The notes under the pieces: generated by a model
Told to the model about the DNA's origin: nothing
Seen by the model: the letters and a program-made list of their open reading frames with translations, nothing else
The model's database searches: none
Shown here: positions 9,509 to 25,384 of the stretch, piece by piece
How the letters are laid out: every line of letters begins with the position of its first letter
Position numbering within the stretch: the first letter of the stretch is position 1
Source: an uncultured Spirochaetaceae bacterium
GTDB lineage: Bacteria > Spirochaetota > Spirochaetia > DSM-27196 > SLST01
Direction of reading: 5' to 3'
Assembly (NCBI GenBank): GCA_964437265.1
Contig: CAYTGY010000003.1
Span: 1 to 38,000 of the forward strand
DNA: 38,000 nt
Made by a program: the position numbers and the translations under genes

Positions 9509-10387
9509 ATGCGGAAAAGCAGAAAGACACAGCCATTCGATGTTGTCAACTACGGACTCTTCGCGCTGCTCTGTTCGGTCAGCTTGCTACCGTTCGTGCA
9601 CCTCCTGGCCAAATCGCTCAGTAGCCGCAACAGCGTCATCCGGGGCGAAGTCGCGCTTCTGCCGATCAACCCTCAACTTGAAGCGTACGCGTACGTGATC
9701 GGGAATACGCAGTTCTTGAACTCGCTGCTTGTATCAGTGTTTCTGGCGACCTTCGGGACGTTCATCAGCGTAACGCTGACTGCGATGGTCGCCTACCCAC
9801 TGTCCAAGAGCGGCTTTCGGGGACGGAAGCTCATACTGTACGCATTCGTCTTTGCCTGGCTGTTCGCACCCTCGATCGTGCCGGTCTTCTTCCTAATGCG
9901 CTCGCTGGGACTGTTGAACAATCTACTCTCGCTGATCCTGATTGATGTGATCTGGTGTTTCAACATGCTCATCGTCAAATCCTATTTTGAGGGCATTCCG
10001 GACTCTCTGCCCGAGTCGGCACAGATTGAGGGTGCGTCCAATATCCGCATCCTCTTCTCTATCATCATGCCTGTCGCGAAGCCGGTGATCGCGACGATCA
10101 CCATCTACTCGGCGTTTGGCTACTGGAACATGTACTTCTGGCCCGTGCTGTTCATCTCGCGACCGTCGCTCAAGCCGCTTCAGTTGTACATCTACGAACT
10201 GGTCTTTTCGGCGTCGAACAATCTGAGCGGCAACGTGATGGACGACGCCTCTCGGTTCAAGAGCGTTGTTCCGGACATCATCCGTTCGGCGACGGTCTTC
10301 GTCTCAATGATCCCCGTCATGGCGGTGTACCCATTCGTCCAGAAGCACTTCGTCAAGGGGATCATGCTCGGGTCGGTGAAAGGATAG
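9509..10387 (+). CDS. carbohydrate ABC transporter permease, LplC/YtcP-type
   Basis: 292-aa polytopic ORF with the loop ESAQIEGASNIRILFSIIMPVAKP. It starts 11 nt after the preceding permease gene. Confidence 0.8.
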   Translation: MRKSRKTQPFDVVNYGLFALLCSVSLLPFVHLLAKSLSSRNSVIRGEVALLPINPQLEAYAYVIGNTQFLNSLLVSVFLATFGTFISVTLTAMVAYPLSKSGFRGRKLILYAFVFAWLFAPSIVPVFFLMRSLGLLNNLLSLILIDVIWCFNMLIVKSYFEGIPDSLPESAQIEGASNIRILFSIIMPVAKPVIATITIYSAFGYWNMYFWPVLFISRPSLKPLQLYIYELVFSASNNLSGNVMDDASRFKSVVPDIIRSATVFVSMIPVMAVYPFVQKHFVKGIMLGSVKG

Positions 10388-10505
10388 CGATCTCGGTTTC
10401 GCCGCTCCAGCGGTTCGACCGCGGAGGGCAAGACCAGGACGATACGGCAGACGAAACGGACCGGGCGGTTCGGATCGCGCGCCAAAACCACAGGAGGCAA
10501 AGAGT

Positions 10506-11978
10506 ATGGCAAGAGCAAAGACGATCGCGGTTATCATTGTCGCGCTCGCGGTGGCCGGCACGGTGTTCGCAACCGGTCAGTCGGAGGGACAACAGGTCAG
10601 CCTGCGCATTCTCACGGACATGAACCCAGGTGACGACATGAACACGGACCCCGTGACGCAGCTCACCGAGGAAATCACGGGTTACAACCTCGAGTTCGAG
10701 AAGCTTCCCGACGACCCGGGCCAGAGAGCGCAGAGGCTTAACCTGGTTCTCGCCGCGGGCGAAGAAGTCGATCTCATTCGGCTCTCAAGCATCGGAGTCG
10801 CACAGGAGCTGATTCCGCAGGGGTACTTCACGCCGCTGGACGACCTGCTTGAGGAGTACGGACCAAACATCCTCGAGAACACGAGCGACGAGTGGTTCGA
10901 GCCGGTCACGTGGGACGGGAGCATTCACGCGGTTCCTATCAAGCGAACGTCGGCGGCGAGCATCGTTGGGTCGATCTACCGTAAGGACGTCTTTGAGTCC
11001 CTGGGGATTGCGGTTCCAACCACTCCGGCGGAGTTCCGATCGGCACTTACCGCGGTGCGAGAGGCGACCGACACGGTTCCCTATACGGCGACGGCATCGT
11101 TTCCCATGATTGACACCATCGCGAGCGCGTTCGGGATCTGCCTGAACGGGTGGTACGAGGTCGACGGGGAGCTCGTTCCCCGTGTCAAGATGGACGGATT
11201 CGTCCCCTACCTATCTTACGTCCGCGGACTCATCGAAGACGGGCTGATGGATCGCGAGATTGCGGCGAACACGGATCAGATCACGCAGGCGAAGATGGCA
11301 TCCGAACGCGCCATGGCGTCATTCTGGGCCTGGTGGTGGTGGCCTGCAAACGACGCGATCCGTGACAACGAGGGAGCGGAGCTCGGGTACCTACCTCCGC
11401 TTCGGTCCGAGCAGGGCGAGGGCATGGCCTGGCTGTGGGGAACAACACCCGAGTGGGCAACCGTCGTTCCCAAGGCAACGACGAAGGCAACACACGCCGT
11501 CTCCTTCCTGGACGCGCTCGCTGAAGACGGGAACTTCCAGGATATCTTTCTTGGCGAGCAGGGGGTTCATTACCGGCGCGAAGGAGACACGTACGTCAGC
11601 CTTCCCGCGTTCACTGAAGAGAAGGCCAATTCCTGGGTCATGCTCATGGTGACCAACGACGACTATCGCGCAACGTACCAGGCGATCTCCCAATCGGGAG
11701 AGGACCCGAACCGCGACGTACAGATGACGTACGAAGGGATGAAGAACGCCGCCGACCCCGTTGCGGTCGCCGACCCGACGGTCGATCTCTCTCCGCCGGA
11801 GGAGAACGGGCGATACGCGAACAACCTCGCGGCGATCGAGAACGAGTTCATCCTGGCGGTGCTCTCAGGAGTGCGCTCCGTGGATGAATACGAGCAGTTC
11901 ATTGCTCGGTGGGATGCCGAGGGAGGCGCGGAACTGACCGAGGCGTGGAATCGGGTGTACGCTGTGTCGCAGCGGTAA
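10506..11978 (+). CDS. extracellular solute-binding protein, large LplA-type (oligosaccharide)
   Basis: 490 aa with AGGAGG at 10492-10497. The signal peptide MARAKTIAVIIVALAVAGTVFATGQSEG has no lipobox Cys. Size and composition are typical of LplA-like SBPs. Confidence 0.75.
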   Translation: MARAKTIAVIIVALAVAGTVFATGQSEGQQVSLRILTDMNPGDDMNTDPVTQLTEEITGYNLEFEKLPDDPGQRAQRLNLVLAAGEEVDLIRLSSIGVAQELIPQGYFTPLDDLLEEYGPNILENTSDEWFEPVTWDGSIHAVPIKRTSAASIVGSIYRKDVFESLGIAVPTTPAEFRSALTAVREATDTVPYTATASFPMIDTIASAFGICLNGWYEVDGELVPRVKMDGFVPYLSYVRGLIEDGLMDREIAANTDQITQAKMASERAMASFWAWWWWPANDAIRDNEGAELGYLPPLRSEQGEGMAWLWGTTPEWATVVPKATTKATHAVSFLDALAEDGNFQDIFLGEQGVHYRREGDTYVSLPAFTEEKANSWVMLMVTNDDYRATYQAISQSGEDPNRDVQMTYEGMKNAADPVAVADPTVDLSPPEENGRYANNLAAIENEFILAVLSGVRSVDEYEQFIARWDAEGGAELTEAWNRVYAVSQR

Positions 11979-12050: not shown

Positions 12051-13733
12051 TCATTCGTCGGACGCTCGGGCGGGCACTATCTCTATGAGATGAACCGCGA
12101 AGCACCTAATTGCGACGTCAAGCGTCAAGCAACCGGATATGACGCGATCAAAGGTTTCGGATGGTGCGGGAAACTCGGCGAGCGTCCGGTACCGTTGCTC
12201 CATCGCTTCCCAGTATGCCACGTGCGTCGGGTCAATCAACGCATGCCGAACATCCAGTTGGTCTCGAGAACGGAAGTAGTGGGCATCGCAGAGTCCGGCC
12301 GCCAGACGGTCGGTCTCCCACTGGTGCCAGAAGTCACCGTGCTGCTCGTCGACGACCCACGTCCGAACGCGTACAGGACCGGACAAGGGAAGACCTTCGA
12401 TCTGTATGCGAGCCTCAGCCGGGGGCAGGGGCGTTCGTACGTCCGGCGCGTGTCGAAACAGCAGGAGATCGCATCGCTCGCCGTGCGCGTCGATCCCGGC
12501 AATCACTCGCGTCATCTCTTCGGCGTCCTCGGATCGGACCGCGACCCGAACGTCATCGGCGAGATGCGAGACGAGGCGAAGTGCGTGCGTAGCCGAGGAC
12601 TCGATCCCGTGGAGAAGACCGCCGGTTCGCAGGACAGACCAGCGCGACCACGTCACAATGCCGTGTTCGAGCATGAGGTAGAGGGCCCACGCGGTCCAAC
12701 TCGCATCGTACACCGACCCGGGGCTCAGCCCGTGCCAGAGCCACTTCCCGTCGGTACCGAAGAGCATTGCGCCTTCGCTGACCTCAATGGGAACTGAGGA
12801 AAAGCCGTTCGTGTCCAGCGCGGCGCGTGTCCGCGCAACTTTGTCTGGGAGCCTGCTCAACGTCCCGGGTTGACCCGCGAGCGGTGTGTTCCATTCGTCC
12901 GACTCCAGCACCGCCGGCGCGTGATCGTAGTATGACACCGCGAAGAAGTCCAGGCGCGCGCCGATGCCGCCGGTTGCGTCGTTGCGTCCCGACGCACAAT
13001 GCTCAATGAAGCGCCGGGCGTCCCAGAACCCGTCGTCCATCATCGCATGCGCGCCAATACGGGTCCGCGCCGCCGGGAGAACGCGGTCGATCGCAGCAAC
13101 GCTCCAATCATAGAGCCTGAAGAACTCGTTCATCGACTCTCCGGGAGTCCCGTCGTCAGCCTCCCACCATGCTCGGTTCTCCATCTCTGTTCCGACGAAC
13201 CACCGCCACTCGGAAACCTCGAGATCCCCGAAGCGCGTGACAAGCGCCCGAACGAGCGCCTCCAGGTAGTTCGCGTAGACCGCGTAGTCGCGGGGGGGGC
13301 GGGAATTCACCCTGAACCAATCAATCTTGGGATTGCCGGACAGCTTGACGGGCACCGCATGCAGCTTGAGACACGGTTTGACCCCTTGGCGCAGCATGTT
13401 CGCGCACGCTCGTGTGAGGGGCGCGAAGTCGTAGTCGTCGAGGATCGCCGAATTCGACGGATCTTGGAAGAGGTCGCGGTCGAACTCGCACAGGCTAACG
13501 TCATCGCTTCCGCGGGGGTACCCGCGGTATCCACCACCGGATGCGATGAACACTTGCATCTCGGCGAGCCATGGGTAACGACCCTTGAGGTCACCGGCAG
13601 GGATCGACTCTGCCCACTCGTGCCAGACACGCTCGTCCGGAGTCGTACCCAGATAGTGCCAGAAACTGAGACTGCTGAACCGATTACCGATCGGCCCGTG
13701 GTCTCGCGATGCGAAGTCACAGACGAACCTCAT
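12051..13733 (-). CDS. GH39-like clan GH-A TIM-barrel glycoside hydrolase, cytoplasmic
   Basis: 560-aa ORF. The segment DYDFAPLTRACANMLRQGVKPCLKLHAVPVKL...PPRDYAVYANYLEALVRALVTRFGDLEVSEWRWFVGTEMEN parallels, from memory, the GH39 block YDF...GI+P...PP+DY..W..L...RYG..EV..W.FE+WNEPN. Here T-E replaces N-E at the acid/base position. The start overlaps the upstream stop (ATGA). Confidence 0.5.
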   Translation of the reverse strand: MRFVCDFASRDHGPIGNRFSSLSFWHYLGTTPDERVWHEWAESIPAGDLKGRYPWLAEMQVFIASGGGYRGYPRGSDDVSLCEFDRDLFQDPSNSAILDDYDFAPLTRACANMLRQGVKPCLKLHAVPVKLSGNPKIDWFRVNSRPPRDYAVYANYLEALVRALVTRFGDLEVSEWRWFVGTEMENRAWWEADDGTPGESMNEFFRLYDWSVAAIDRVLPAARTRIGAHAMMDDGFWDARRFIEHCASGRNDATGGIGARLDFFAVSYYDHAPAVLESDEWNTPLAGQPGTLSRLPDKVARTRAALDTNGFSSVPIEVSEGAMLFGTDGKWLWHGLSPGSVYDASWTAWALYLMLEHGIVTWSRWSVLRTGGLLHGIESSATHALRLVSHLADDVRVAVRSEDAEEMTRVIAGIDAHGERCDLLLFRHAPDVRTPLPPAEARIQIEGLPLSGPVRVRTWVVDEQHGDFWHQWETDRLAAGLCDAHYFRSRDQLDVRHALIDPTHVAYWEAMEQRYRTLAEFPAPSETFDRVISGCLTLDVAIRCFAVHLIEIVPARASDE

Positions 13734-14806
13734 GTCGGTAGTACCCCCATTTCACGGAAGAAACGCTCCGACTCACTTAGGTAGGAGCGATAGCTCGCAA
13801 GCGACACCTCAGGAGGTGTCTGGTGATCCACTGCGGGCAAGAACCTGCCGCGCCGGAACAGTGACGCAAGTGAAGCAAATTCGTCGGCGATCGCTTGGTG
13901 ACCGCACGCGATCACGCGTTTGTCGAACCCGCCCATGAACGCGGTCTGCGGATGCTCACTGCGCAGACAATGTAGATCCATTCCGGTTTGCCGCTCCATC
14001 GGATTGATACAGTGATAGCCAACACCGGAAAACCGACCGACAAGATCGGTGACGTTGCCGTCGCTGTCGAGCGCGATGACGCACCGTGCCTGCGACAGCT
14101 CCGGCACCAATAGACGGTGATAGGGCGCGACAAACTCGTCAAACATCTCCGGAGAGATCATCGGACCGTTCTTGTAGGCGAGGTCCTCGGAGACGCACAC
14201 CACCGCCGGCACACCCATGCCGTAGAGTGTTCTGACCGCGCGTATGTTGAACTCAAGCAGACGTCGATTGATCTCATGCATCAGCGCCGGACGGTCGTAG
14301 AAGGAGACCAGGTGTTCGGTGATTCCGAGCAACTCGCGAGGGTGCCAGAAGAACCCGTGAATCGGCACCCAGAGAATTCCGTCCAGGGATGCTGATCGTT
14401 CAAGCGCGCGTCGGTACTCATCGAGTCGCCGGTCAAGTTTCTCGGGTGCGTAGAGATCAGAGCACGTGCGGTTGAGGTCCGCCGCCGTCCTGACCCGTTC
14501 TCGCGCCCCAGCGCGATCGACGTCGGGAGCGACTTCGAAGAAGGTCAGCGGGGTCAGCCCGAACAGCGTGTGAAGCTCCTCCTGCGTCTCCAGTCCAGCC
14601 GGCAGGCCTTCACTTCGCCACCGGCGCAACGTGTCCGGGTGGTAGGGCATGATCTCAAGGCGTGGGAGGCGCTCGACCGGTGCACCGCGGACAAGGTGGT
14701 TGTAGAGACTCTCGGCTAGTGAAGAAGCACCGGGTGCTACGCCTGCCCGCAGTTCAGGTCGGTCGGCTGGTGAGGGCTCGCGACTATTCGTCTCTGAGGC
14801 ACGCAT
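13730..14806 (-). CDS. uroporphyrinogen-decarboxylase (URO-D)/MtaA-like family protein of unknown role
   Basis: The C-terminal two thirds (VPAVVCVSEDLAYKNGPMISPEMFDEFVAPYHRLLV...DSDGNVTDLV...INPMERQTGMD...GGFDKRV) look URO-D-like. ATG 14806 (track start 14809 is TTG) overlaps the GH130 3' end by 23 nt. Confidence 0.55.
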   Translation of the reverse strand: MRASETNSREPSPADRPELRAGVAPGASSLAESLYNHLVRGAPVERLPRLEIMPYHPDTLRRWRSEGLPAGLETQEELHTLFGLTPLTFFEVAPDVDRAGARERVRTAADLNRTCSDLYAPEKLDRRLDEYRRALERSASLDGILWVPIHGFFWHPRELLGITEHLVSFYDRPALMHEINRRLLEFNIRAVRTLYGMGVPAVVCVSEDLAYKNGPMISPEMFDEFVAPYHRLLVPELSQARCVIALDSDGNVTDLVGRFSGVGYHCINPMERQTGMDLHCLRSEHPQTAFMGGFDKRVIACGHQAIADEFASLASLFRRGRFLPAVDHQTPPEVSLASYRSYLSESERFFREMGVLPT

Positions 14807-15707
14807 CAACGAGACCTTTCAAGGGGGCGGTCGCAAGTCCGACGTTGGTGTCCGCAGCACCGTAGTAGACGCGCACCGTTCCGTCGTCATCAAGAAGCGC
14901 GTTGCACGTGAACACGACGTTTGCGACGCGGCCCCGCATCTCGTAGTCGTGTTCCGGCCAAAGGACAAAGTCGCGTGTGTAGCCGATGACTCGTGCCGGG
15001 TCTTCGAGATCGAGAAGCATCGCCTTCAGCCGGTAGACGAACCCGTTACACGTCGTGGAGACGGTGTGGTATATCTCGAGCCATCCCTTGTCGGTACGAA
15101 TTGGAACCGCGCCGGCACCCATCTTGTGACCATCGAAGAACGGCCGGCCTCGGTAGGTGAGCGGTTCTGATCTGCCCCAGAAAACGAGGTCCGGTGACCG
15201 GCTCACCCACATCGACGATGGATCGAGTTCGTTTCCGAACGGCCGATCGAACCGCGTGTACAGATCCTCGAACTTCTCCGGAAAGAGACACCCGTTTCGG
15301 TTGCCGAGCTCGCTTGCGGTGCACACGCGCTCAAATGACGCGAAGTCTGTTGTGCGCAGGATTCCAATGCGCACGTTGTTCTGCGAGAGATCACTCGCAT
15401 AGAGAATGACGAATTCGTTGTCGATGCGCGTAATGCGGGGATCGTACGTGTTCGTCTCAGGATGCGACGGGTCTACCTGCGGCATATGGACCGGTGCGGG
15501 ATCCGGAGTGAAATGCACCCCGTCATCGCTGCGCGCGATCCACAGCCGATGCACGTCGTCGAGCGTGGTGACGTCCATCATCATAAGGTACGTACCGTTC
15601 CACCGGATCGCGCCTGGGTTGAACGTGTAGAGCACCTGTTTGGGCATCATGGCGGGCGTCATGATCGGATTGCCCGCGTATTTGGTGAAGAGCCGATTTT
15701 CGGTCAT
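14784..15707 (-). CDS. GH130 family beta-mannoside phosphorylase/hydrolase
   Basis: Contains GNPIMTP...YTFNPGAIRWNGTYLMMMDV...DPRITRIDNEFVILY...MGAGAVPIRTDKGWLEIYH...VYYGAADTNVGLA, characteristic five-bladed-propeller GH130 blocks. ATG 15707 lies 2 nt after the GRE stop. No signal peptide. Confidence 0.8.
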   Translation of the reverse strand: MTENRLFTKYAGNPIMTPAMMPKQVLYTFNPGAIRWNGTYLMMMDVTTLDDVHRLWIARSDDGVHFTPDPAPVHMPQVDPSHPETNTYDPRITRIDNEFVILYASDLSQNNVRIGILRTTDFASFERVCTASELGNRNGCLFPEKFEDLYTRFDRPFGNELDPSSMWVSRSPDLVFWGRSEPLTYRGRPFFDGHKMGAGAVPIRTDKGWLEIYHTVSTTCNGFVYRLKAMLLDLEDPARVIGYTRDFVLWPEHDYEMRGRVANVVFTCNALLDDDGTVRVYYGAADTNVGLATAPLKGLVDACLRDE

Positions 15708-15709
15708 CG

Positions 15710-18052
15710 CTACGCCTCCATGGCCGTGCGCCGGAGAATATCCGACTGACTCGCTTCGTCAAGATTTGTGAAGTAGTCAACGTATCCACCGACGCGAACC
15801 ATCAAATCCCGGTAATTCTCAGGGTGAGCAACCGCGTCCTCCAGCGTCGCTCGGCTGACACAGTTCATCTGCAAGTGCGAGCCTCCACGACGGAAGAACG
15901 TGTTCACGAGCGCCTGAGTCTTCTGCCGCGCATCCTCAGTATTCAAGAACGATTCATGGAACCGGATCTGGCCGATTGTCCCTCCCGCCCAGTGCTTCCC
16001 ATCGAGTTTCGCCATCGAGTTGAGAACCGCCGTCGGACCGTTTCGCTCCGTTCCGGGGTACGCAGCATTCCCCGCGGCGAGCGCATGCTTCGCGAAGCGA
16101 CCGTCCGGCGTTGCCGGCGTGAGTAGCCCCTCGTACACGTGCGAGATTCGTGGTATCAGCTCAAAAACCCACTTGCCGTCGGTGTAGACACTCCTGCGAC
16201 TCGGTGGGTAGGGTTCCATCGCCTCGCGGCTCACCTCCTCAATGAGAGGAATCATCGCGTCTACGTAATCGTCGTCATTTCCGAACTTGGGCGCGTTCCA
16301 GAGTTTCTGCCGGATCTCCGGGTGTTCGGCAAAATCCGCCGCAAGCGCACGACCGAGTTCTTCCTGGGACACTGATTGGTCGTCAAAGACGCATTTCTTG
16401 ATGGCGGCGAGCGAGTTTACGACGGGAATGAAGTCGCTATGGCCCAAAGCCGGCTGGAAAAAATCGACGGCCTCCATGAGGCTTCCGCCACGCTCGATGC
16501 ACCCGCTCATCAGCGCCGATGCAAACGGCAGCGGGCGCAGGTCGACGTGCAGTCGATCCATAATCCCTATCCCGGCAGCGACGTACGGCGCGAAGTGCCG
16601 CACGGTTTCTCTGTACGCCGCAAAGAATTGCTCCCATGACTCGTACTCGCCCAGACGCGGCACAGCGGGCCCCATCTGCTTCCCGTTGTCCGGCATCACG
16701 CCGCCGTTTAGCACCAGTTCCAGCACGCGAACGAGGAAGATCGGTCGCGCGATCCCACCTCCGAGCAGGCGGCCTCCGATGACCGTCTCGTTGCAGCCGG
16801 CCTGACAATAGTCGACGGCAGCGGATCGTGGAATGCCGACACGGACGAGCCCACCAACGTAGTCCTCGTCGTTGATAATCGCGATCGATGCATCCCCCGC
16901 ATACGTGCTGTCCAGGATAGTTCGGATCATCCGCTGATCAATGGCAGGGTGCCACCGGACCAGAAGCGAAGGCTGCACCATCTGGGTGGCGCGATCGGCT
17001 GCGACACACAGGTACGAGACCTCGTTCGTCATGTCGTTACCGTCTATGTCCGCACCGCAAATCGTGATCGTCTGCGTCAGCGATATCCTCGTTCCGCCAA
17101 GCGTTATCTCCATGCACTTCATGTAGAGCGACTCCACAAGTTCCTGAGCAAACCCTTCGTGCAGAACGCCCGCGTCTCGATCTGCGCGGTAGCAGCCAAC
17201 CGTGTACTGGTCGAACCTGCCGAGCGAGATTGCAAACCCATTCTGTTCTAGGTGCATCACAAGGTGCATGAACCACGTCGCCTGGCACGCTTGCCAGAAG
17301 GTGCCGGCCGGATGAGCGGGAACGGTGCGGCAGTTCTCCGCTATGGCGTGAAGCTCCGCGCGTCGTCGCGGATCCTTCTCCGCCGCTGCAAGCTGGTCCG
17401 CGAGCTCCGCGTATCTGTGTGCGAAGCGGATAACCGCCTGCAACACAATGACTACCGCGCGGTTGAAATGATAGCCCCTCGCGTCACGCGCGTAGCACCA
17501 CTGCATCCGCTCGCGCGCTCGCTCAATGTAGGAGAGAAGCCCATGATTCACAACTTTGTCATACTCGACGACAATATGGCCTTGTCCCTCGTCGCGGCCG
17601 TAGGGGTTTCCGCATATCTCACGCGTGTCGCGCATCTCCTGGATCTCGGCAGGCATCACGGTATCAGCGATCTCGTGCATGCAACGGCCTCGCCAGAACT
17701 CGCGGATCCGCCTGAACTCACGCCGCTCCTCATCCGTCGCGAAGTCCGTCTCGTCGAGCTCGCGATCGAAGTCGAAGTGGACGTACCGGATCACGACGTC
17801 CTGAAACGTGTACTCCGGGTACATCTCGTAGTCGCCGAGCCGGGCAGCGTAGTTTCCTACGATCAACTCGCCCTCACGGATGAACACCGTCTTCTCGTCG
17901 AGCACTCGCGCTGCCGCACGGGCCTGCTGTACGACCGGAACCTCTGCAGCGTTGTCTGCGTACGCGTTGGTGACCAGTCGTGCTCGCTCCAAGTTCCATG
18001 CACTCGGGGCGGCGAAGAACTCATCCTTCAATCGTCGAACACGTTCGCTCAT
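15710..18052 (-). CDS. glycyl radical enzyme (PFL2/eliminase-like), substrate unknown
   Basis: Start trimmed to ATG 18052 (MSERVRRLKDE...), with AGGAAGGAG 6 nt upstream. It has a PFL2-type N-terminus (ERARLVTNAY...REGELIVGN), the Cys loop DYCQAGCNETVIGG, KFGNDDDYVD, ATPDGR, GGSHLQMNCV and the glycyl motif MVRVGGYVDYF near the C-terminus. Confidence 0.9.
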   Translation of the reverse strand: MSERVRRLKDEFFAAPSAWNLERARLVTNAYADNAAEVPVVQQARAAARVLDEKTVFIREGELIVGNYAARLGDYEMYPEYTFQDVVIRYVHFDFDRELDETDFATDEERREFRRIREFWRGRCMHEIADTVMPAEIQEMRDTREICGNPYGRDEGQGHIVVEYDKVVNHGLLSYIERARERMQWCYARDARGYHFNRAVVIVLQAVIRFAHRYAELADQLAAAEKDPRRRAELHAIAENCRTVPAHPAGTFWQACQATWFMHLVMHLEQNGFAISLGRFDQYTVGCYRADRDAGVLHEGFAQELVESLYMKCMEITLGGTRISLTQTITICGADIDGNDMTNEVSYLCVAADRATQMVQPSLLVRWHPAIDQRMIRTILDSTYAGDASIAIINDEDYVGGLVRVGIPRSAAVDYCQAGCNETVIGGRLLGGGIARPIFLVRVLELVLNGGVMPDNGKQMGPAVPRLGEYESWEQFFAAYRETVRHFAPYVAAGIGIMDRLHVDLRPLPFASALMSGCIERGGSLMEAVDFFQPALGHSDFIPVVNSLAAIKKCVFDDQSVSQEELGRALAADFAEHPEIRQKLWNAPKFGNDDDYVDAMIPLIEEVSREAMEPYPPSRRSVYTDGKWVFELIPRISHVYEGLLTPATPDGRFAKHALAAGNAAYPGTERNGPTAVLNSMAKLDGKHWAGGTIGQIRFHESFLNTEDARQKTQALVNTFFRRGGSHLQMNCVSRATLEDAVAHPENYRDLMVRVGGYVDYFTNLDEASQSDILRRTAMEA

Positions 18053-18084
18053 GCTCTGCTCCTTCCTACCTGTGTGCGAGGCGA

Positions 18085-19014
18085 TCACATGACCGTCGTC
18101 GTCAAACTGCTCGATTCGAGGCGAAGGACAAGGCGTTGTATCTCTTCCGCCGTGGGGGGCTCGACGTCTTCCATCGCGTACTCCAACCCAAGTCCCTCGT
18201 ACTTCGACGCGCCCATCCGGTGGTAGGGCATGATGTCCACCGGGCCGGTGAAATCGGCGTCCTTCGCAAACGTGATGAGCGCGTCGATGTTCTCCCTTGT
18301 ATCCGTGAGTCCCGGAATGAGGACAAGGCGCGCCCGAACATCCGGCACGAGGCGCAGTGCCGAACGGAAGCTCGCAAGGATGCCCTCATTCCTAACACCC
18401 GTGTAGCGCTCGTGCAGCGTCGGATCCATGAGCTTGAGGTCAAAAAGAATCCCGTCGAATCGGCGTACAACCGCGTCGAAGACGGGCGCCTCAGCGAATC
18501 CCGATGTGTCTAGGTACACGGTGACGCCTTCGTTGTGGCATGCATCCGCGATGGCAATAGCCGCTTCCGGCTGCCGCAGCGGCTCTCCGCCGGAGACCGT
18601 GACGCCTCCAAGCGAGGCCTCGTAGTAGTCGCGGTCACGCACCACCTGACGCATGATCTCCGACACCGAAACCACGCCGCCGTGAATTGCCAGAGCCTCC
18701 GCCATGCACACGCCGACGCACGCGCCACACGCGGTACACTTTGCATGGTCAACCGAGTGTACCCCGTGGACAATTTGCTGTGCCCCGTGCGGGCAGCGGT
18801 CGACGCATGCCCCACACGAGGTACACAAGCGCCGGCTGAAAAGCAGGACCGGCCCAGATTCGTGCGACTCGGGGTTATGACACCAGCGGCACCGCAACGG
18901 GCACCCCTTGAGGAACACTGTGGTACGAATCCCGGGTCCGTCGTGCAGACAGAAACGCTGGATGCGGAGGAGGTGTACTGACGTTGAGTCCTGGTCAACA
19001 CGCGTATCGTTCAT
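18085..19014 (-). CDS. glycyl-radical enzyme activating protein (radical SAM, PflA family with ferredoxin-like insert)
   Basis: Contains IQRFCLHDGPGIRTTVFLKGCPLRCRWCHNPE (CxxxCxxC at 18880-18903) and two CxxCxxCxxxC motifs (CTSCGACVDRCP, CTACGACVGVCM). The C-terminus has PYHRMGASKYEGLG. Start is ambiguous: ATG 19014, ATG 19035 or TTG 19056, none with a strong SD. It ends 32 nt before the GRE start. Confidence 0.88.
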   Translation of the reverse strand: MNDTRVDQDSTSVHLLRIQRFCLHDGPGIRTTVFLKGCPLRCRWCHNPESHESGPVLLFSRRLCTSCGACVDRCPHGAQQIVHGVHSVDHAKCTACGACVGVCMAEALAIHGGVVSVSEIMRQVVRDRDYYEASLGGVTVSGGEPLRQPEAAIAIADACHNEGVTVYLDTSGFAEAPVFDAVVRRFDGILFDLKLMDPTLHERYTGVRNEGILASFRSALRLVPDVRARLVLIPGLTDTRENIDALITFAKDADFTGPVDIMPYHRMGASKYEGLGLEYAMEDVEPPTAEEIQRLVLRLESSSLTTTVM

Positions 19015-19162
19015 CTTGCCGGTCCGCAGTGTCATACGAAGGAGATGAACGGACAATGTCTTCGGGCGTTGGCGTTTCCGACCCCAATCGTGGGCGAGGA
19101 ATCCAACGACCCAAACTGCCGTGGATGACTGGACGCAGCAAGTATGGTAGCATCAAAGCTAT

Positions 19163-20050
19163 ATGGCCGGAAGCCGAAGACCGACGCCGACGTGCGCGCG
19201 GACGGTCGCCCTGGATGAACTGGTAGACGTGCTTGAGCTACCGACCACAAGGATCAAGGTGTCCGGCGACGTGGAGCCGTACTGGAAACGGTGGTTCGAG
19301 TACTCATGCACAAATCGGTTGATCGCGTACCACGAGATCAGTTACGTCCTCAAGGGAAGAATCCACGGAGAGATCGAAGGCGATCACCTTGACCTCGCAG
19401 CCGGTGATATGTTCTGGATGGCCCCCCGTGCGCGCCACTCGATGACGTGGTGCGAGCAGCTCATCTACTACACCTTTCGGTTCTCCGTCCACGACCGATG
19501 CGAGGAGGTTTCCCTGAACCGGCCCTTCGTGCACTCCTCGTCGGCGGGAAGTCTCGAACCGCTCTTCAGCAACCTCGCGTCGCTTCTGAAGAACGATCCA
19601 GCAAATCCCTACCATGAGAAGAGAATCAAGGCCTACCTGCTCCTGATTGCAGCGCATATCGCTATGCCGGCTGGTTCGCCCCCGGCTGACACGGGAAACC
19701 GCGAGCTGACCGATGCCGAACGAAGCGCACTCTTCGAGTACTGCTCGCGATCCGGTTTCGCCGAAGTGGACTCATCGGTGCTCGCCGACTACCTTGGTCT
19801 CTCGCGCGACTACTTCTCTCGAGTGTTCAAACAGACGTTCGGGAAGAGCACGCGGAGTTGGCTTTTCGAACAGAAGATGCATTTCGCCGCGCGTCAACTG
19901 GTGGACACGGACCTACCGATTGAGGAGATCGCCGGCCACGCCGGGTATCTGGACGTCTATCTGTTTGCCAGGCAGTTTAAGCGTGTGCTTGGACTCACGC
20001 CCAAGCGGTACCGCCAACGGAACCGTTGGGGAATCCACGACGATACGTGA
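19163..20050 (+). CDS. AraC-family transcriptional regulator (cupin sensor plus 2x HTH)
   Basis: N-terminal cupin-like region (YVLKGRIHGEIEGDHLDLAAGDMFWM). The C-terminus LADYLGLSRDYFSRVFKQTFGKSTRSWLFEQKMHFAARQLVDTDLPIEEIAGHAGYLDVYLFARQFKRVLGLTPKRYR is AraC-type. It is divergent from the GRE operon. The start is uncertain (ATG 19163 or GTG 19229). Confidence 0.85.
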   Translation: MAGSRRPTPTCARTVALDELVDVLELPTTRIKVSGDVEPYWKRWFEYSCTNRLIAYHEISYVLKGRIHGEIEGDHLDLAAGDMFWMAPRARHSMTWCEQLIYYTFRFSVHDRCEEVSLNRPFVHSSSAGSLEPLFSNLASLLKNDPANPYHEKRIKAYLLLIAAHIAMPAGSPPADTGNRELTDAERSALFEYCSRSGFAEVDSSVLADYLGLSRDYFSRVFKQTFGKSTRSWLFEQKMHFAARQLVDTDLPIEEIAGHAGYLDVYLFARQFKRVLGLTPKRYRQRNRWGIHDDT

Positions 20051-20116: not shown

Positions 20117-20210
20117 ATGCCCACACGCGTTTCCGTGGCCAAAGACACCGACTACGAGCTGCTCACCGCCGACGACTTTCTGGCATGGCTGGAGCCGGGA
20201 AAACACGCGG
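20117..20210 (+). repeat. right copy of the direct repeat (partner 4086-4158)
   Basis: See the left copy. This copy is the 5' end of the intact Uma2 gene and contains the extra 21 nt at 20153-20173. Confidence 0.9.
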
Positions 20211-20764
20211 ACCTGATCGATGGGGAGGTGGAGATGCACTCGCCGGTCTCACTCAAACATGCCGAGCTGCTCAACTTCGTCGATGCTATCTTGAGGCAGT
20301 ACATTGACCGACACGATCTGGGCACGCTCTTCCGCGAGGTGGTGGCGGTTCGTCTGAGCTCGCGAAACGTGTTCATGCCGGACCTTGCCTTCTACCGCGC
20401 CGGCAGAGAGGCTGACCTCCGTGATACCTATGCGGCCGGCGCTCCGGATTTGGTGGTTGAGGTGTTGAGCCCGCGCACGGCGGAGCGCGACGTGGGACCC
20501 AAGTTCGCTGAGTACGAACAGCACGGCGTCATTGAGTACTGGGTGCTTGATCCGGAGACGCTCGCGCACCGGTTCTACCGGCGACAGGGGGAGATCCTTA
20601 CCGAGTACGCGGATGAAACCGAGAATACGGCTGGAACCGGCGGCGCGGCGGCGACCATTCATTCAGAGACGGTGCCCGGATTCTTTGTCCGCAGGGAGTG
20701 GCTCACACCGGCCGCCGTGCCAAAGATTGACGCAGCGCTGACGGAGATCGAAGCCGCCCGGTGA
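20117..20764 (+). CDS. Uma2-family (DUF820) endonuclease
   Basis: 215 aa. Contains DGEVEMHSPVSLKHAEL...PDLAFY...APDLVVEVLSPRTAERDVGPKFAEYEQHGVIEYWVLDPE, the PD-(D/E)xK-like Uma2 signature blocks. Confidence 0.85.
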   Translation: MPTRVSVAKDTDYELLTADDFLAWLEPGKHADLIDGEVEMHSPVSLKHAELLNFVDAILRQYIDRHDLGTLFREVVAVRLSSRNVFMPDLAFYRAGREADLRDTYAAGAPDLVVEVLSPRTAERDVGPKFAEYEQHGVIEYWVLDPETLAHRFYRRQGEILTEYADETENTAGTGGAAATIHSETVPGFFVRREWLTPAAVPKIDAALTEIEAAR

Positions 20765-20772: not shown

Positions 20773-21731
20773 ATGAGAACCATCACGATTCCTGGTACCG
20801 ACCTCTCGGTCTCTACGATTTGCTATGGGACGGCCACGTTGGGCGTTACGATGAGCGACGCTGAGGTTGCCCGGCTCCTCACCACCTACCGTGACCACGG
20901 TGCACATTCCTTGATACCGCTCACGTCTACGCGTGCTGGACCAACGCCGGCGCGGGATCGAGCGAACAGACGATTGCCCGGTACCTAACGGCGAACCCGG
21001 CTCCGGAGATAGTAGTTGCAACCAAGGGCGGACACCCGGGAATGGCAGGATACCGCAGCGTGGAGCGTTGGCTGGACCCGTGCCGGGTGCGCGCTTACAT
21101 CCAGGACAGCTTGGGCCGGCTCGAGCGGGATACCATCGATCTCTACTACCTGCACCACGACGACACGCGTTTCACGGTGGCGGAGATAATCGACATGATG
21201 AACCGATTTGTCACCGACGGATTGATCCGCTTCTTTGCCGCAAGCAACTGGACCGCATCGCGATTGGCCGCGGCAAACGCGTACGCGCGGCACCAAGGTG
21301 TACAGGGGTTCGTGGCTTCGCAGGTGGAGTGGAGCCTTGCGGAACGGGAGCCGCCTCCCCCGCTACCGTACGGAGCGCAGACGGTTTTCGCACAGCCTGA
21401 AGATCAGTCCTTTCACGAGAGAACGGGACTGCCGCTGTGCGCGTACTCTGCAACTGCCGGAGGGTTCTTCAGCCGGGTGCCGACGGCACAGGTCCCAGGG
21501 AACGACCGTGATACCCCGGCCAGCCGAAAGCGACTCCTACGCACGCGAGAGCTTGCCTCCGAGTACGGAAAGACGCCGACGCAGATAGCACTGGCGTGGC
21601 TCATGCACCAGCGGTTTCGCTGTATCCCCATCACCGGAACCACCTCAGTCGATCATCTGCGAGAGAACCTCGGTGCGGCTGCGGTGCTGCTCACGGCAGA
21701 CCAGGTACGCCGGCTGCGGGATGGGCAGTAA
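20773..21731 (+). pseudogene. aldo/keto reductase interrupted by a -1 frameshift near 20895-20905
   Basis: The N-terminal frame (MRTITIPGTDLSVSTICYGTATLG...YRDHG) stops making AKR sense after about 20900. The next frame continues FLDTAHVYA...SEQTIARYL...VVATKGGHP...IDLYYLHHDD... to the stop at 21731. That frame opens after a TGA at 20892-20894. The track splits the gene into ORFs 20761..20988 and 21042..21731. Confidence 0.7.
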
Positions 21732-21758: not shown

Positions 21759-22643
21759 TCATCTGTCCGCGCCACCGTGCGTGTCGGTTAACAGCGACCA
21801 CAACGGCGGGAAGGGACGGCCCATGTTGTCACGGCCGGTTGCCGGATGCGGGGAGAGATACGCCTTAAGCGCACGCAGGATCGGCGCATCAAAGCCTACC
21901 CGGTCCGCCTCATCAAGAAAGTAGTCGAACTCGGCGTACTTGTGGTTCATCGCATCCCCGGCGCCGGCGAGTACGTTGACGGCGATCTCATGGAACTGCG
22001 CGCGGAACCCTGTGTCTCCGCCGACCGCGCGCATCAGCGTCCCTTCGTCCACGCCGGCGGTTACCCCGTAGGCGATCGCCTCCGAGTACGCCGCGGTGAG
22101 AAAGCCCATGGCGAGCTGGTTGACGCCTTTGGTGATCTGTCCGCATCCCGACGGCCCGCAGTAGGTCAACCGCTCAGACGCCAGCGTCTTCAGGATCAGC
22201 CAGACCCGCTCGGCAGGCTCGCGATCGCCGCCCACAAAACAGTAGAGGCTCCCCATTGCACAGCCAATTGCCCCGCCTGAGACCGGCGCATCCAGCAGAT
22301 GCGCGCCGCGTTGGGCAAACAGCCCGTGGAGCCGCCGCGTCTGCGAGGCGACCGTGGTGCCCATATCTATGACGATCATTCCCTCACGGACCGAGGGGAG
22401 GATCTGCTCCTCCAAGACACGCACGGTGACCTCTGAGCTCGGAAGGCTCAAGAGGATCACCGAACACCCCTTGGCCACCTGCTCCGCGCTCTCCGCCGCC
22501 GCCGCGCCGATCGCGGTTACCGTCGCGGTCCGCTCGGGGTCCAGATCGAACACCAGCAGATCGTAGAAGCTGCGCACCAGGGTGGTGGCCATGCGGCCGC
22601 CCATCGCCCCAAGCCCAATAAAGCCGATCTTCTTTCGCTGCAT
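21759..22643 (-). CDS. NAD(P)-dependent beta-hydroxyacid dehydrogenase family oxidoreductase (3-hydroxyisobutyrate DH / tartronate semialdehyde reductase-like)
   Basis: Contains KIGFIGLGAMGGRMA, DAPVSGG and GQITKGVNQL. I prefer ATG 22643 (GGAGG at 22651-22655, 7 nt upstream). ATG 22661 is also in frame. It is the last gene of its operon. Confidence 0.8.
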   Translation of the reverse strand: MQRKKIGFIGLGAMGGRMATTLVRSFYDLLVFDLDPERTATVTAIGAAAAESAEQVAKGCSVILLSLPSSEVTVRVLEEQILPSVREGMIVIDMGTTVASQTRRLHGLFAQRGAHLLDAPVSGGAIGCAMGSLYCFVGGDREPAERVWLILKTLASERLTYCGPSGCGQITKGVNQLAMGFLTAAYSEAIAYGVTAGVDEGTLMRAVGGDTGFRAQFHEIAVNVLAGAGDAMNHKYAEFDYFLDEADRVGFDAPILRALKAYLSPHPATGRDNMGRPFPPLWSLLTDTHGGADR

Positions 22644-22663
22644 CTTTACGCCTCCGCTCATGT

Positions 22664-23767
22664 TCAGCTGTACTCCGGAATGTCCACGCGCTCGCCATCG
22701 CGAAGTGCCGACTGGTGAGCGCAGATACCTACCGACGTCCAGTTCGCCGCCTGCTCGGCATTCGGAAACGGCTGCCGACCATCGACCAGTGCGGAAACCA
22801 TCTCATGAACCAGATGCGGGTGAGAACCGCCGTGACCTCCGCCCTGGATGAAGGAAAGGTGCTCCTCATCAGCGATGCTCTGCGTGAACTTCCTGATGGG
22901 CTCAGGCAGCCGATGTGCGAAGTCGGGGACCGTTACGCGCTCGGGGATCTCCGGTTCAGGCCTCTTTGCGGTGTGGAGGACCGGACTCTCGCCTTCGATC
23001 AACGGCCACTCGAACGACTTCTTTGATCCATACACATCGATGCTCTCTCGGTACTGCCGCGCAGTGTCCCAGAGAAAGCGCCAGATGTGCGCGGCCACAT
23101 CCGAGTCCTTGATCTTGATGTGACACGACTCAACGGCAAACCGGTTGCCCGACCGCTCTGCTACCTCGGCATGGACACGTCCCGAACCAACGCAGCTCAC
23201 GTACTCGGCGAGCCCCCCGACCATCGCCAGGACCGGACTGACCACGTGGGTGGCGTAGTGCATGGGGATCATATCCTTCCAGTAGTCGGGCCACCCCTCC
23301 ATATCCTGCGGATGCGACGCCTGCAGGTACTGGATCTCACCAAGCTCGCCCTTCTCCGCGAGATCCTTCACATACAGGTACTCACGGCTGTAGACCACGG
23401 TCTCCGCCATCATATAGGTGAGCCCGGTCTGCTTGACCAGATCAACTATTTGGCGACACTCCTCCAGCGTTGTCGCCATGGGAACGGTACACATCACGTG
23501 CTTGCCGGCCGTAAGCGCGGCGATCGACATGGGGGCGTGATCCGGAATGGGGCTGTTGATGTGGACATAATCCACATCGGGGTCGCGGAGTACGTCGCTG
23601 TAGTCGGTGTACCGGGTGGTCACGCCAAAACGGTCGCCCACCTCGTTGAGCTTTGACTCGTCGCGACGGCAGATCGCGGCGATCTCCGCCTGCGGGTGCG
23701 CCTGATAGATGGGAATGAACTCCGCACCAAAACCGAGACCAATCAGACCTACTCGTACCTTCTCCAT
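22664..23767 (-). CDS. Gfo/Idh/MocA family oxidoreductase
   Basis: 367 aa. It has the Rossmann start MEKVRVGLIGLGFGAEF and then HVMCTVPMATTLEE (an EKP-like position). GGAGGGAG lies upstream of the ATG. Confidence 0.8.
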   Translation of the reverse strand: MEKVRVGLIGLGFGAEFIPIYQAHPQAEIAAICRRDESKLNEVGDRFGVTTRYTDYSDVLRDPDVDYVHINSPIPDHAPMSIAALTAGKHVMCTVPMATTLEECRQIVDLVKQTGLTYMMAETVVYSREYLYVKDLAEKGELGEIQYLQASHPQDMEGWPDYWKDMIPMHYATHVVSPVLAMVGGLAEYVSCVGSGRVHAEVAERSGNRFAVESCHIKIKDSDVAAHIWRFLWDTARQYRESIDVYGSKKSFEWPLIEGESPVLHTAKRPEPEIPERVTVPDFAHRLPEPIRKFTQSIADEEHLSFIQGGGHGGSHPHLVHEMVSALVDGRQPFPNAEQAANWTSVGICAHQSALRDGERVDIPEYS

Positions 23768-23797
23768 ACTCCCTCCGTTGGTCGCAGCACCGTAGCG

Positions 23798-24526
23798 TCA
23801 CTGCGCCGCGACCGGCGTGACTTCTCCACTGCGGCTGGACTCGAGGATTGCGTGAGACACCTCGAGCGCGCGCAGACCATCGTGCCCGGTGACATCCGGG
23901 GTCCTGCCGTCCCGGATGCAGCCGATGAAGTGTTCGTTCTCCGCGACAAAACCGGAGAGATCATTGCGGTCATTGATCACATCAATGCGCTCGTGCGAAA
24001 GCGACTCGATACTCATACCGCACAGCAGGGCGGGATCGGTGCGCCAGTTGTACTCAGGCGAAGAGCCGGCTCCGCGGGCGATCCGTTGACACCAGATTGA
24101 GGTGAGATCGCCAATGCTGCCTGAGTCGACCATCTCCTTGAGACGGATGAACCCGTGGTGAAAACGGAACTTGAATGCCGTGGCCAGCGTCACCCCGGCC
24201 TCTTTGGCTGCGGCGACTATCCGGGCGCCGTCCTCCACGGAGATCGCCAACGGCTTCTCGCACACGATGTGCCGGCCGGCGGCGGCGGCAGCGCAGGCTA
24301 TCTGCGCGTGAGTGGACGGCGGGGTGAGGATGTAGACGGTGTCTACCAGATCGAAGAGCTCTTCGAGCGACTCACACGCGTGGGCGCCGCACGAACGCGC
24401 CACCTCGCGCGCCCGCGCTGCGTCGGTGTCAGCCACCGCGGCCACCTGCGCGTCGGCAATCTGTTCAAGCGAGTCGATGTGCCGGCCGGCGATTCCGCCG
24501 GCACCGACGATCCCTACTCGTACCAT
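23798..24526 (-). CDS. Gfo/Idh/MocA family oxidoreductase, unusually short (242 aa)
   Basis: Contains MVRVGIVGAGGIAGRH, HIVCEKPLA and SIGDL. After SLSHERIDVI it jumps directly into the C-terminal helix region FVAENEHFIGCIRDGRTPDVTGHDGLRALEV. GAGGAG lies upstream. Confidence 0.7.
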   Translation of the reverse strand: MVRVGIVGAGGIAGRHIDSLEQIADAQVAAVADTDAARAREVARSCGAHACESLEELFDLVDTVYILTPPSTHAQIACAAAAAGRHIVCEKPLAISVEDGARIVAAAKEAGVTLATAFKFRFHHGFIRLKEMVDSGSIGDLTSIWCQRIARGAGSSPEYNWRTDPALLCGMSIESLSHERIDVINDRNDLSGFVAENEHFIGCIRDGRTPDVTGHDGLRALEVSHAILESSRSGEVTPVAAQ

Positions 24527-24553
24527 GATGCTCTCCTCAAGTGGTGCCGGCGG

Positions 24554-25384
24554 CTATCCTTTGATGCCGCCCTGCGTAATGCCGCGGACGATGTGCCGCT
24601 GCATCACGAAGAAAAAGATGAGAATCGGCGTGATGGCAATCAGGATTGCCGCGAATATCGCCGGCCAATCGGCAGTCCACTCGCCCCAGAGACTGTACAT
24701 TGCGACCGGAATAGTCATCACATTGCCACGTCTGAGCATCAGCATCGGCAACAGGAAATCGTTCCAGAACCACATCCCCTGCAAAACCGCGATGGTCGCA
24801 AGAATCGGCCGGAGCAGCGGAAAGACAATCTGGAAGAACATCCGGAACGGCCCGCAACCGTCCACCGTCGCGGCATCCTCGAACCCGCGAGGAACGCTCT
24901 TCACAAACCCGTGGATGATGAAGATCGCAAACGTCGCGTCCATGCCCCAGTAGGTGAGAATGACGGAGAATCGGTTGTTGATGAGGCCCAGCGTTCCGTG
25001 AACCCTGGCAAGCGGAATCATCACGGTGTGAAACGGGACAATCATTGAGAAGGTGATGATGTAAAAAAGCGCCTGGCTGTACCAGGTCTTGGTTCTGGCC
25101 AACTTGTACGCGGCCATGCTCGCCATGGTCTGGATCCCTGCAACCCCCATCACGGTGATGAAGAGCGAGTTGAAGAGCGTTCGAGAGACCTGCAGCGCCT
25201 CCCAGGCGCGGGCGAAACTGCTCAACTGGACCGACTCAGGCAACGAGATGAATGAGAGCATCACCTCCGGATAGGTCTTCAGCGAGTTGAGCACCAGGTA
25301 GACGAGTGGGACTATTGTCAGAACCAAGATAACTGCGGCGATGATCTGAAACAGAATGCGGCTACTCAGACGTGTTTGAAGCAT
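24554..25384 (-). CDS. carbohydrate ABC transporter permease (MalG-like)
   Basis: Start trimmed to ATG 25384 (MLQTRLSSRILFQIIAAVILV...), with GGGAGGTGG upstream and a TAATG overlap with the preceding permease stop. EAA-like loop: EDAATVDGCGPFRMFFQIVFPLLRP. Confidence 0.85.
   Translation of the reverse strand: MLQTRLSSRILFQIIAAVILVLTIVPLVYLVLNSLKTYPEVMLSFISLPESVQLSSFARAWEALQVSRTLFNSLFITVMGVAGIQTMASMAAYKLARTKTWYSQALFYIITFSMIVPFHTVMIPLARVHGTLGLINNRFSVILTYWGMDATFAIFIIHGFVKSVPRGFEDAATVDGCGPFRMFFQIVFPLLRPILATIAVLQGMWFWNDFLLPMLMLRRGNVMTIPVAMYSLWGEWTADWPAIFAAILIAITPILIFFFVMQRHIVRGITQGGIKG

Follow-up and report, generated by a model that had tools for sequence, protein, structure and literature searches.

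The first 38,000 nucleotides (nt) of contig CAYTGY010000003.1 from an uncultured Spirochaetaceae bacterium (hereafter the window, meaning this whole stretch) encode a glycyl radical enzyme (GRE) and its activating radical S-adenosylmethionine (SAM) enzyme within an operon of glycan-degradation genes. In database searches and in a phylogenetic tree, this GRE defines a rare, separate and sharply bounded clade of the Cys-x-Glu (CxE) type, and the clade is embedded, in a conserved manner, among enzymes and importers for sulfated rhamnose- or beta-mannose-containing glycans. We favor the reading, with a probability of roughly 0.6, that the enzyme is a new radical C-O lyase of the CxE type whose substrate is a sugar freed from a sulfated rhamnose/mannose glycan inside the cytoplasm. 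A preliminary description of this DNA had proposed a radical eliminase for a sugar-derived intermediate; the comparisons reported here support that proposal, although they do not separate an eliminase from a ring- or ether-opening isomerase of the PflD/YbiW type.

The GRE and its activase are intact

The two genes and the motifs on which the following analyses rely are:

15710-18052, minus strand: glycyl radical enzyme (GRE), 780 amino acids (aa) from MSERV, with PFL-like and Gly_radical domains
15785-15787, minus strand: Gly756, the radical-bearing glycine in RVGGYVDYF, invariant
16139-16162, minus strand: active-site strand E631-L-I-P-R635-I-S-H638, with E631 where HpsG/IslA have their sulfonate-binding Arg
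16787-16795, minus strand: Cys-loop core C420-N421-E422, with the catalytic Cys (C420, 16793-16795) and the CxE glutamate (E422, 16787-16789)
17576-17602, minus strand: clade-invariant loop Y151-G-R-D-E-G-Q-G-H159, in which H159 corresponds to His164 of glycerol dehydratase (GD); most like TDKGQGH of PflD
18085-19035, minus strand: GRE-activating radical SAM enzyme; maximal open reading frame (ORF) to 19056, start probably ATG 19035 or 19014
18880-18903, minus strand: CPLRCRWC in the activase translation, the CX3CX2C motif for the SAM-binding [4Fe-4S] cluster

The larger protein matches the PFL-like (PF02901, 1.5e-147) and Gly_radical (PF01228, 9e-27) domains, and its PFL-like barrel, Gly-radical domain, catalytic Cys and adjacent activase place it in the GRE superfamily. 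The motifs KFGNDDDYVD, ATPDGR and MVRVGGYVDYF, which the preliminary description had reported for a 780-aa GRE, are present, and a recount placed the codons of the radical Gly, the Cys, the Glu and the CX3CX2C motif exactly where they had been given. The Gly loop had also been said to depart from the usual motif; its residues indeed differ from RVAGYSA.F, though RVGGY is kept, and the string GYVDYF is specific to the clade. The activase exceeds the cut-off of the GRE-activase model TIGR02494 (308.7 bits vs 174), has Radical_SAM and Fer4 domains in addition and, as its translation confirms, carries CPLRCRWC and the two CxxCxxCxxxC motifs described earlier. Both genes are intact, and the GRE with its dedicated activase would be expected to form a working radical enzyme.

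Membership among the formate-lyases PflB/TdcE, whose hallmark is an adjacent Cys-Cys pair, was not found, since the GRE has a single Cys in AGCNE and scores 86 on TIGR01255 against a cut-off of 994. The Cys-x-Glu arrangement, which was already pointed out in the preliminary description, is invariant at C420 and E422 in the 32 members of the clade, and this motif places the predicted protein in the CxE-type class of 1,2-eliminases and PflD/YbiW isomerases, as defined in a 2026 review in which the Glu acts as a base (PMC13450708). An AlphaFold2 (AF2) model of the GRE (pLDDT 92.6) matched all solved eliminases at TM scores of 0.89-0.93; the GRE fold is therefore certain and the fold search does not discriminate among these enzymes.

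A rare clade outside the characterized GRE families

A word-indexed search of 5.8 billion proteins recovered 32 clusters with 45-100% identity to the GRE and at least 774 bits, the next match having 36% identity and 452 bits. An exhaustive HMMER search was run against 1.84 billion 50%-identity representatives, 1619 of which had E <= 1e-30; only two of them fall in the clade, one with 846 bits and the other a 510-aa fragment with 597 bits, and the next score was 454 bits. Beyond the clade, identity to the GRE falls to 37% or less, and a neighbour-joining tree built from 124 sequences recovers all 32 members as one monophyletic group on a long stem. Identity to GD, two propanediol dehydratases (PDs), a YbiW homologue, PflD and HypD is about 31-33%, compared with 34-58% among those enzymes themselves, and the nearest PDB entry (up to 2026) is about 32% identical.

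The GRE also falls below every NCBIfam equivalog cut-off (HpfG 426/1000, HypD 403/1100, PflD 394/1109 and CutC 375/1050), whereas a true HypD (P0055) scores 1283 on the HypD model NF043068, with its cut-off of 1100. The cut-off of TIGR01774, the PFL2/glycerol dehydratase subfamily, was likewise missed (524.3 bits vs 678.2); ten neighbouring GREs reach 660-930 on this model. By these sequence measures, the GRE is not a member of the GD/PD, PflD/YbiW, IslA/IseG/HpsG, HpfG, HypD, CutC or PflB families. The preliminary description had held that tight clustering within a characterized clade, with all substrate contacts conserved, would speak against its proposal; the opposite was found, in that the cut-offs are missed, the clade stands apart on its stem and the contact positions of GD and the PDs are replaced.

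Those relatives of the GRE that could be resolved to a genome are labelled Opitutaceae, Chthoniobacteraceae, Bacteroidia and, in one metagenome-assembled genome (MAG), 'Nitrospiraceae'. The last of these carries locus L002, a 76%-identity relative; its nearest relatives are Verrucomicrobiota MAGs, and the label may reflect a binning error or horizontal transfer. Locus L005 (Phytohabitans, 25% identity) contains an unrelated GRE and was excluded from the comparisons.

Active-site residues differ from those of diol dehydratases and C-S lyases

Active-site positions were mapped by sequence alignment of the 32 clade members (45-100% identity) onto GD. Residues C433, E435, H164 and G763 of GD correspond to C420, E422, H159 and G756, and all four are invariant. 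Among the diol-binding residues (H164, H281, S282, Y339, D447 and Y640 of GD; structure 1R9D and the review), S282 is retained in half of the clade members, and otherwise only H164 is kept. H281 is replaced by Phe, Y339 by Thr (T326), preceded by an 8-residue deletion, D447 by Ile/Val/Leu/Met within an invariant GG(I)xR436 loop and Y640 by Ile, and the WHD motif of GD reads GGx. The middle residue of the CxE motif is Asn in 30 of the 32 members and Val or Ile in all six compared enzymes (GD, the PDs, the YbiW homologue, PflD and HypD), which agrees with the earlier remark that Asn stands here in place of a hydrophobic residue. The strings YGRDEGQGH, EQNGF, ISLTQT, GCNET, GGGxxR, ExIPRxxHV and GYVDYF are specific to the clade and lacking in the closest outgroup sequences.

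Invariant charged residues at the mapped pocket comprise R153, D154, E155, R436, E631, R635 and H638. In peptide-level searches of the PDB, the H159 loop RDEGQGHIVVEY had a single match, TDKGQGHIIIDY of PflD, and the best match of the Cys loop GCNETVIGG was GCIETAVGG of YbiW. A further such search aligned the Arg that anchors the sulfonate in C-S lyases (HpsG R672/IslA R678, the second Arg of the Arg-Gln-Arg anchor) with the invariant E631; the homologues retrieved with the GRE included no C-S lyase. These comparisons suggest a pocket that differs from those of diol dehydratases and C-S lyases and that locally resembles both sugar-acting GREs, and its invariant charged and polar residues would suit a polyhydroxylated, possibly anionic, substrate.

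Two further CxE enzymes can be compared with the clade. CutC differs in its model score (TIGR04394, 375 vs 1050); its Asp216 is presumably the equivalent of GD His164, a position that is His in the clade. HypD shares the 'ET'-type Cys loop and a His at the position of H638, but its pocket residues are not shared and the loci of the clade have no proline or amino-acid context. HypD and its relatives HpyG, HpzG and HplG act on ring substrates by a CxE eliminase or isomerase mechanism (PMC13450708).

The GRE is embedded in conserved glycan-degradation loci

The GRE and activase genes belong to a minus-strand operon of five ORFs, which is faced by sulfatase and importer genes on the plus strand. 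The relevant features of the window are:

12051-19056, minus strand: five-ORF operon of activase, GRE, GH130, URO-D-like and GH39-like genes, all co-directional
14784-15707, minus strand: glycoside hydrolase (GH) family 130 protein, a phosphorylase-type beta-mannoside enzyme without signal peptide (Pfam 2.6e-48)
13730-14809, minus strand: URO-D-fold protein (Pfam 3.4e-10), start uncertain; the gene caller places it at ATG 14650
12051-13733, minus strand: GH39-like hydrolase of clan GH-A (GH39, 5e-15)
19163-20050, plus strand: divergent AraC-family regulator (Pfam domain match)
8517-11978, plus strand: ABC importer, with permeases at 8517-9497 and 9509-10387 and a solute-binding protein at 10506-11978
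6890-8419, plus strand: Cys-type (CVPAR) S1 sulfatase without signal peptide, most likely start GTG 6890
4344-6893, plus strand: GH78-like (alpha-L-rhamnosidase-like) ORF of 849 aa, from a distant structure match

The ORF layout agrees with the five-gene operon of the preliminary description, with gaps of 2-32 nt or overlaps: the activase and GRE are separated by 32 nt, the GRE and GH130 by 2 nt, and the other maximal ORFs overlap. Pfam matches bear out the GH130, URO-D-like and GH39-like assignments as well as the glycosidases, sulfatase and importer that had been described as context. The further claim that these genes stand under the divergent AraC regulator was not borne out, as the sulfatase and importer genes are on the plus strand, convergent with the GRE operon and not visibly AraC-controlled. 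The sulfatase lacks a signal peptide and is thus expected to be cytoplasmic, and the glycan enzymes of the window are all apparently cytoplasmic. An Rfam scan of the whole window returned zero RNA families and so gave no riboswitch hint at a ligand, and a scan of the operon for promoters and terminators found no more sites than in shuffled sequence.

The gene context was surveyed in 14 distinct loci (the window and 13 others) by tblastn and ORF clustering. The activase lies directly upstream of the GRE in all 14, and carbohydrate genes accompany the GRE in 13 of them, so that the pattern named earlier as unfavorable, in which homologues never occur near carbohydrate genes, was not observed. 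Sulfatase and GH130 genes are each present in nine loci, followed by GH39-like (seven), URO-D-like (five), GH2 (four) and Sugar_tr (three) genes. Conservation of the GRE-GH130-UROD-GH39 neighbourhood, a check proposed in the preliminary description, was confirmed in loci L002, L004, L006 and L016, where the order is retained. In L016 (68% GRE identity), the gene set of the window forms one co-directional cluster adjoining an AraC gene, with orthologues of the sulfatase (60% identity), the permeases (65-67%) and the binding protein (59%), and with the AraC orthologue likewise placed.

The subclade with 45-50% identity includes a relative from a Bacteroidia MAG and, separately, a locus that encodes SusD. 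The Bacteroidia-type order is GH26-sulfatase-GH2 (beta-mannosidase type)-sulfatase-activase-GRE-Sugar_tr, and AP_endonuc_2, AGE-family epimerase, GH130 and more sulfatase genes are found nearby. Further loci add GH78-like, GH106 and GH29 enzymes and, immediately following the GRE, a DHDPS-type aldolase. No microcompartment shell, aldehyde dehydrogenase or phosphotransacylase gene was found within the window, and there were no microcompartment or aldehyde-handling genes among the listed genes of the loci; the earlier statement that shell, aldehyde or alcohol dehydrogenase and sulfonate-pathway genes are absent thus stands for the window operon and the listed locus genes. In locus L009 (positions 1-7789; 47%-identity GRE), five successive ORFs of 430-767 aa without Pfam matches lie upstream of the URO-D/activase/GRE genes.

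Partner proteins point to rhamnose and beta-mannose

The nearest solved relative of the GH130 protein is TM1225 (uncharacterised), followed by the phosphorylases RaMP2 and UhgbMP (1e-57 to 1e-40), whereas entries labelled as putative glycosidases or hydrolases matched at 1e-9 or weaker. The GH39-like protein represents a small family of about 32 clusters with 44-59% identity, the next relative having 30%, and many of its members share contigs with the GRE; within the subclade with at least 59% identity, it is the most persistent partner of the GRE. Its candidate catalytic residues are the invariant E183 and the near-invariant E317/E320. One GH39-like orthologue (L019 10001-11695, 54% identity, on a 1.7-Mb contig, without a GRE) has as neighbours an FGGY kinase, an aldolase/short-chain-dehydrogenase fusion, a DeoR regulator and a RhaT-like transporter, which point to rhamnose. 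The link to rhamnose recurs across the loci in the GH78-like and GH106 genes and in this GH39-like neighbourhood. In the window, the 849-aa ORF weakly matches rhamnosidase B of Bacillus GL1 (GH78; 2OKX, E = 1.9e-12); a Pfam search with this ORF and a tblastn search against the other loci were both empty. This cytoplasmic ORF and the sulfatase start overlap by 4 nt (GTGA).

Orthologues of the URO-D-like protein sit on GRE contigs, and its orthologue family, as well as that of the GH39-like protein, is about as rare as the GRE clade. An AF2 model (pLDDT 95.8) resembles human UROD at TM scores of 0.72-0.76 with 14% identity. Members of the wider URO-D-like family occur in sugar loci without a GRE (L017 8001-8996 and L018 8001-9014), next to fucose isomerase, AP_endonuc_2, GH88 and ABC sugar importer genes. 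The residues R, W, E, ED, DxD, E, K and DH are invariant, and the acidic, Lys and His residues among them suggest a sugar-converting enzyme; the URO-D-like proteins may represent an unrecognised family of carbohydrate-converting enzymes. A role as a corrinoid methyltransferase in the demethylation of O-methyl sugars was set aside as unlikely, since no corrinoid protein is encoded in any locus, the zinc ligands of the MtaA type are absent (DSDG instead) and the wider family is found in ordinary sugar loci.

Proposed role and mechanism

In the proposed pathway, the ABC importer would take in a sulfated oligosaccharide containing rhamnose and/or beta-mannose, which the cytoplasmic sulfatase, the GH78-like protein, the GH39-like hydrolase and the GH130 phosphorylase would then dismantle. 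The GRE would transform one of the freed sugars, or an O-substituted sugar that lies beyond the reach of carbonyl chemistry. Since unmodified rhamnose and mannose can be used without a radical reaction, the GRE probably acts on a sugar that carries some modification; sulfate esters, O-methyl and other ethers, anhydro sugars and resistant glycosides are the candidates.

By analogy with GD, PflD and YbiW, the activase would place the radical on Gly756, from where it would be passed to Cys420, and the resulting thiyl radical would take a hydrogen atom from a carbinol carbon of the sugar. From the PflD-like loop, a possible site of abstraction is C2 of a manno- or rhamno-configured ring. Glu422 would deprotonate the hydroxyl group to give a ketyl radical, the C-O bond at the adjacent carbon would break with His159 as the general acid, and Cys420 would give the hydrogen back to yield a deoxy-keto sugar. 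Possible leaving groups are OH, sulfate, a methyl or other ether, and a ring or glycosidic oxygen. The URO-D-fold protein would process the deoxy-keto product, a role that in other lineages would fall to an AP_endonuc_2 or DHDPS-type enzyme. Whereas the gene content, catalytic residues, clade separation and conserved synteny are observed, the chemistry (elimination, or isomerization with opening of a ring or ether) and the sugar nature of the substrate are inferred, as are the site from which hydrogen is taken, the group expelled and the later steps.

Several observations weigh against this proposal. The role of the GRE is predicted from computational comparisons, and its substrate would have to be unusual, given that ordinary free rhamnose and mannose can be used without a radical step. 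Locus L007 shows little of the common gene set. Sulfatases and carbohydrate-active enzymes (CAZymes) are abundant in Verrucomicrobiota and Bacteroidota, and their co-occurrence with the GRE could partly be a background effect. The hydrolases moreover vary by lineage, being rhamnosidase-like or GH39-like in one and of the GH26/GH2 mannan type in the other, so that a substrate common to both lineages is not evident. Finally, the pocket was mapped by alignment to GD, and within the model confidence is lowest in the clade-specific loops (pLDDT 71-85).

Alternative explanations

A particular form of the proposed C-O lyase, counted within its probability, is a radical sulfate-ester eliminase, in which the ketyl radical would expel a neighbouring sulfate and so desulfate a sugar sulfate beyond the reach of the S1 sulfatases. 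Across the loci, sulfatases or other genes for sulfated glycans form the most widespread theme and sulfatase genes directly flank the GRE in several of the Bacteroidia-type loci, three invariant arginines lie in or near the mapped pocket, and related GREs expel sulfite from sulfonates by a similar logic (PMC13450708). The reaction is nevertheless without known precedent, the position of the sulfonate-anchoring Arg of HpsG/IslA is taken by the invariant E631, a cytoplasmic sulfatase is already part of the system, with 2-6 sulfatases in many loci, and Sugar_tr, a transporter of the neutral-sugar type, adjoins the GRE in three loci. We consider this form of the reaction unlikely.

A second alternative is a microcompartment-free 1,2-propanediol or glycerol dehydratase that acts on a small diol and disposes of propanediol derived from the lactaldehyde of rhamnose or fucose breakdown. 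GD and the two PDs (1R8W, 5I2A and 9RCO) are the best overall matches of the GRE by a small margin (388-374 bits, TM scores of 0.91-0.93), and the catalytic Cys and Glu, the general-acid His (His164 of GD) and the type of activase, with two extra ferredoxin-like clusters, are shared; genes related to rhamnose or fucose also recur in the loci. However, identity is just 31-33%, compared with 55-58% among GD and the PDs, the diol-binding positions are substituted in 32 of 32 members and the deletion before T326 removes eight residues. The pocket is instead rich in invariant charged residues, and the genes that would process the aldehyde (aldehyde or alcohol dehydrogenase, phosphotransacylase) or encase the enzyme (shell proteins) are missing from the window operon and the listed locus genes. 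A diol dehydratase is thus very unlikely.

The GRE could also be an isomerase of the PflD/YbiW type, with ring opening of a phosphorylated anhydro-hexitol as its reaction ('anhydroglycolysis'); it would then be a new enzyme with an already known function. PflD and YbiW are GRE isomerases that act as C-O lyases on 1,5-anhydromannitol-6-P and 1,5-anhydroglucitol-6-P, so that the mechanism is established for sugars (PMC13450708). The clade has in common with both enzymes the CxE motif, the conserved His, a fold with a TM score of about 0.9 and the two loops, H159 and Cys, that are most like theirs. It differs in the Asn that replaces Val/Ile in CxE, in its remaining pocket positions, which are unlike those of either enzyme, in identity (30-32%) and in its score on the equivalog model NF007437 (394 vs 1109). 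The expected gene context, which in the E. coli loci is a phosphotransferase system (PTS) or kinase and a fructose-6-P-type aldolase, differs as well: no PTS, sugar kinase or fructose-6-phosphate-aldolase-type gene adjoins the GRE in the 14 loci, and the neighbours are sulfatases, GH130, GH39-like enzymes and sugar importers. This alternative therefore appears highly improbable.

Equally doubtful is a GRE and activase that merely adjoin glycan genes and serve an unrelated metabolite. The density of CAZymes and sulfatases in these phyla, the lineage-dependent hydrolase sets and the divergent L007 neighbourhood would be in keeping with such an arrangement, but the genes are co-directional with tight or overlapping junctions, the GRE-GH130-UROD-GH39 order is conserved at 68-78% GRE identity, the association holds down to 45% identity in loci with MAG relatives in two phyla, and partner families of equal rarity are found on the same contigs.

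A C-S lyase for isethionate, 2,3-dihydroxypropane-1-sulfonate (DHPS) or a sulfoquinovose derivative is hardly credible: HpfG and HpsG are the top-scoring equivalog models, the loci have a sulfur-compound theme, and IslA, IseG, HpsG and the dehydratase HpfG are built on the same CxE eliminase framework, in which a ketyl radical loses an anionic group (PMC13450708), but the scores (408-426 vs 1000) are far below the cut-off, the conserved sulfonate-binding Arg is replaced by Glu, no sulfite reductase, sulfoquinovosidase or other sulfonate-pathway gene was seen in the loci, and the sulfatases indicate sulfate esters rather than sulfonates.

Other genes of the window

Past the AraC regulator and ahead of the next sugar locus lies, at 20117-20764 (plus strand), a gene for a putative restriction endonuclease of the Uma2 family. 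It is followed at 20933-21731 (plus strand) by an aldo/keto reductase ORF (21042-21731, 229 aa), which covers only positions 86-287 of the Pfam model and is overlapped by a second ORF in a different frame (20933-21400); this gene may be frameshifted or truncated. A second carbohydrate locus at 21759-31787 encodes a HIBADH-like dehydrogenase, two GFO/IDH/MocA oxidoreductases (one of just 242 aa), an ABC sugar importer, a hybrid regulator with a GntR helix-turn-helix (HTH) domain and a LacI-type sensor, and a 942-aa GH65 phosphorylase-type enzyme. On the minus strand, 32648-36741 consecutively encodes a cupin/AP_endonuc_2 fusion, a PEP_hydrolase-like protein, a UPF0261 protein and another AP_endonuc_2 protein. 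The PEP_hydrolase-like and UPF0261 proteins form, to our knowledge, a conserved pair that has not been characterized.

Implications for anaerobic glycan degradation

GREs perform chemically hard anaerobic reactions. The literature searched contained no report tying a GRE to GH130, sulfatases or polysaccharide-utilisation loci, other than incidental co-mentions. According to the 2026 review, entire clades of GREs are still without an assigned function, and PflD and YbiW, which act on phosphorylated anhydro-hexitols in enteric bacteria, are the only GREs known to act on sugars (PMC13450708). A broader and more tentative proposal, which we rate somewhat short of even odds, is that the present clade represents the first GREs that are integral to polysaccharide-utilisation systems, where they would use ketyl-radical chemistry to cleave, without oxygen, a C-O bond in a sugar that resists hydrolases and carbonyl chemistry. 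On that same tentative footing, the enzyme might expel sulfate, methanol or another ether substituent, or might open a ring or glycosidic linkage, and the clade would represent a new class of GRE reaction on non-phosphorylated carbohydrates that is common to anaerobic Verrucomicrobiota and Bacteroidota.

Modified sugars of the sulfated, methylated or ether-linked kind are otherwise believed to require oxygenases. If the proposed role is correct, a radical step would be added to anaerobic polysaccharide degradation, and this step could explain how modified algal or cyanobacterial sugars are mineralised in anoxic sediments, lakes and the gut. The clade also offers a defined target, consisting of the GRE and its activase, two rare partner families (the GH39-like and URO-D-fold proteins) and signature motifs for metagenome mining.

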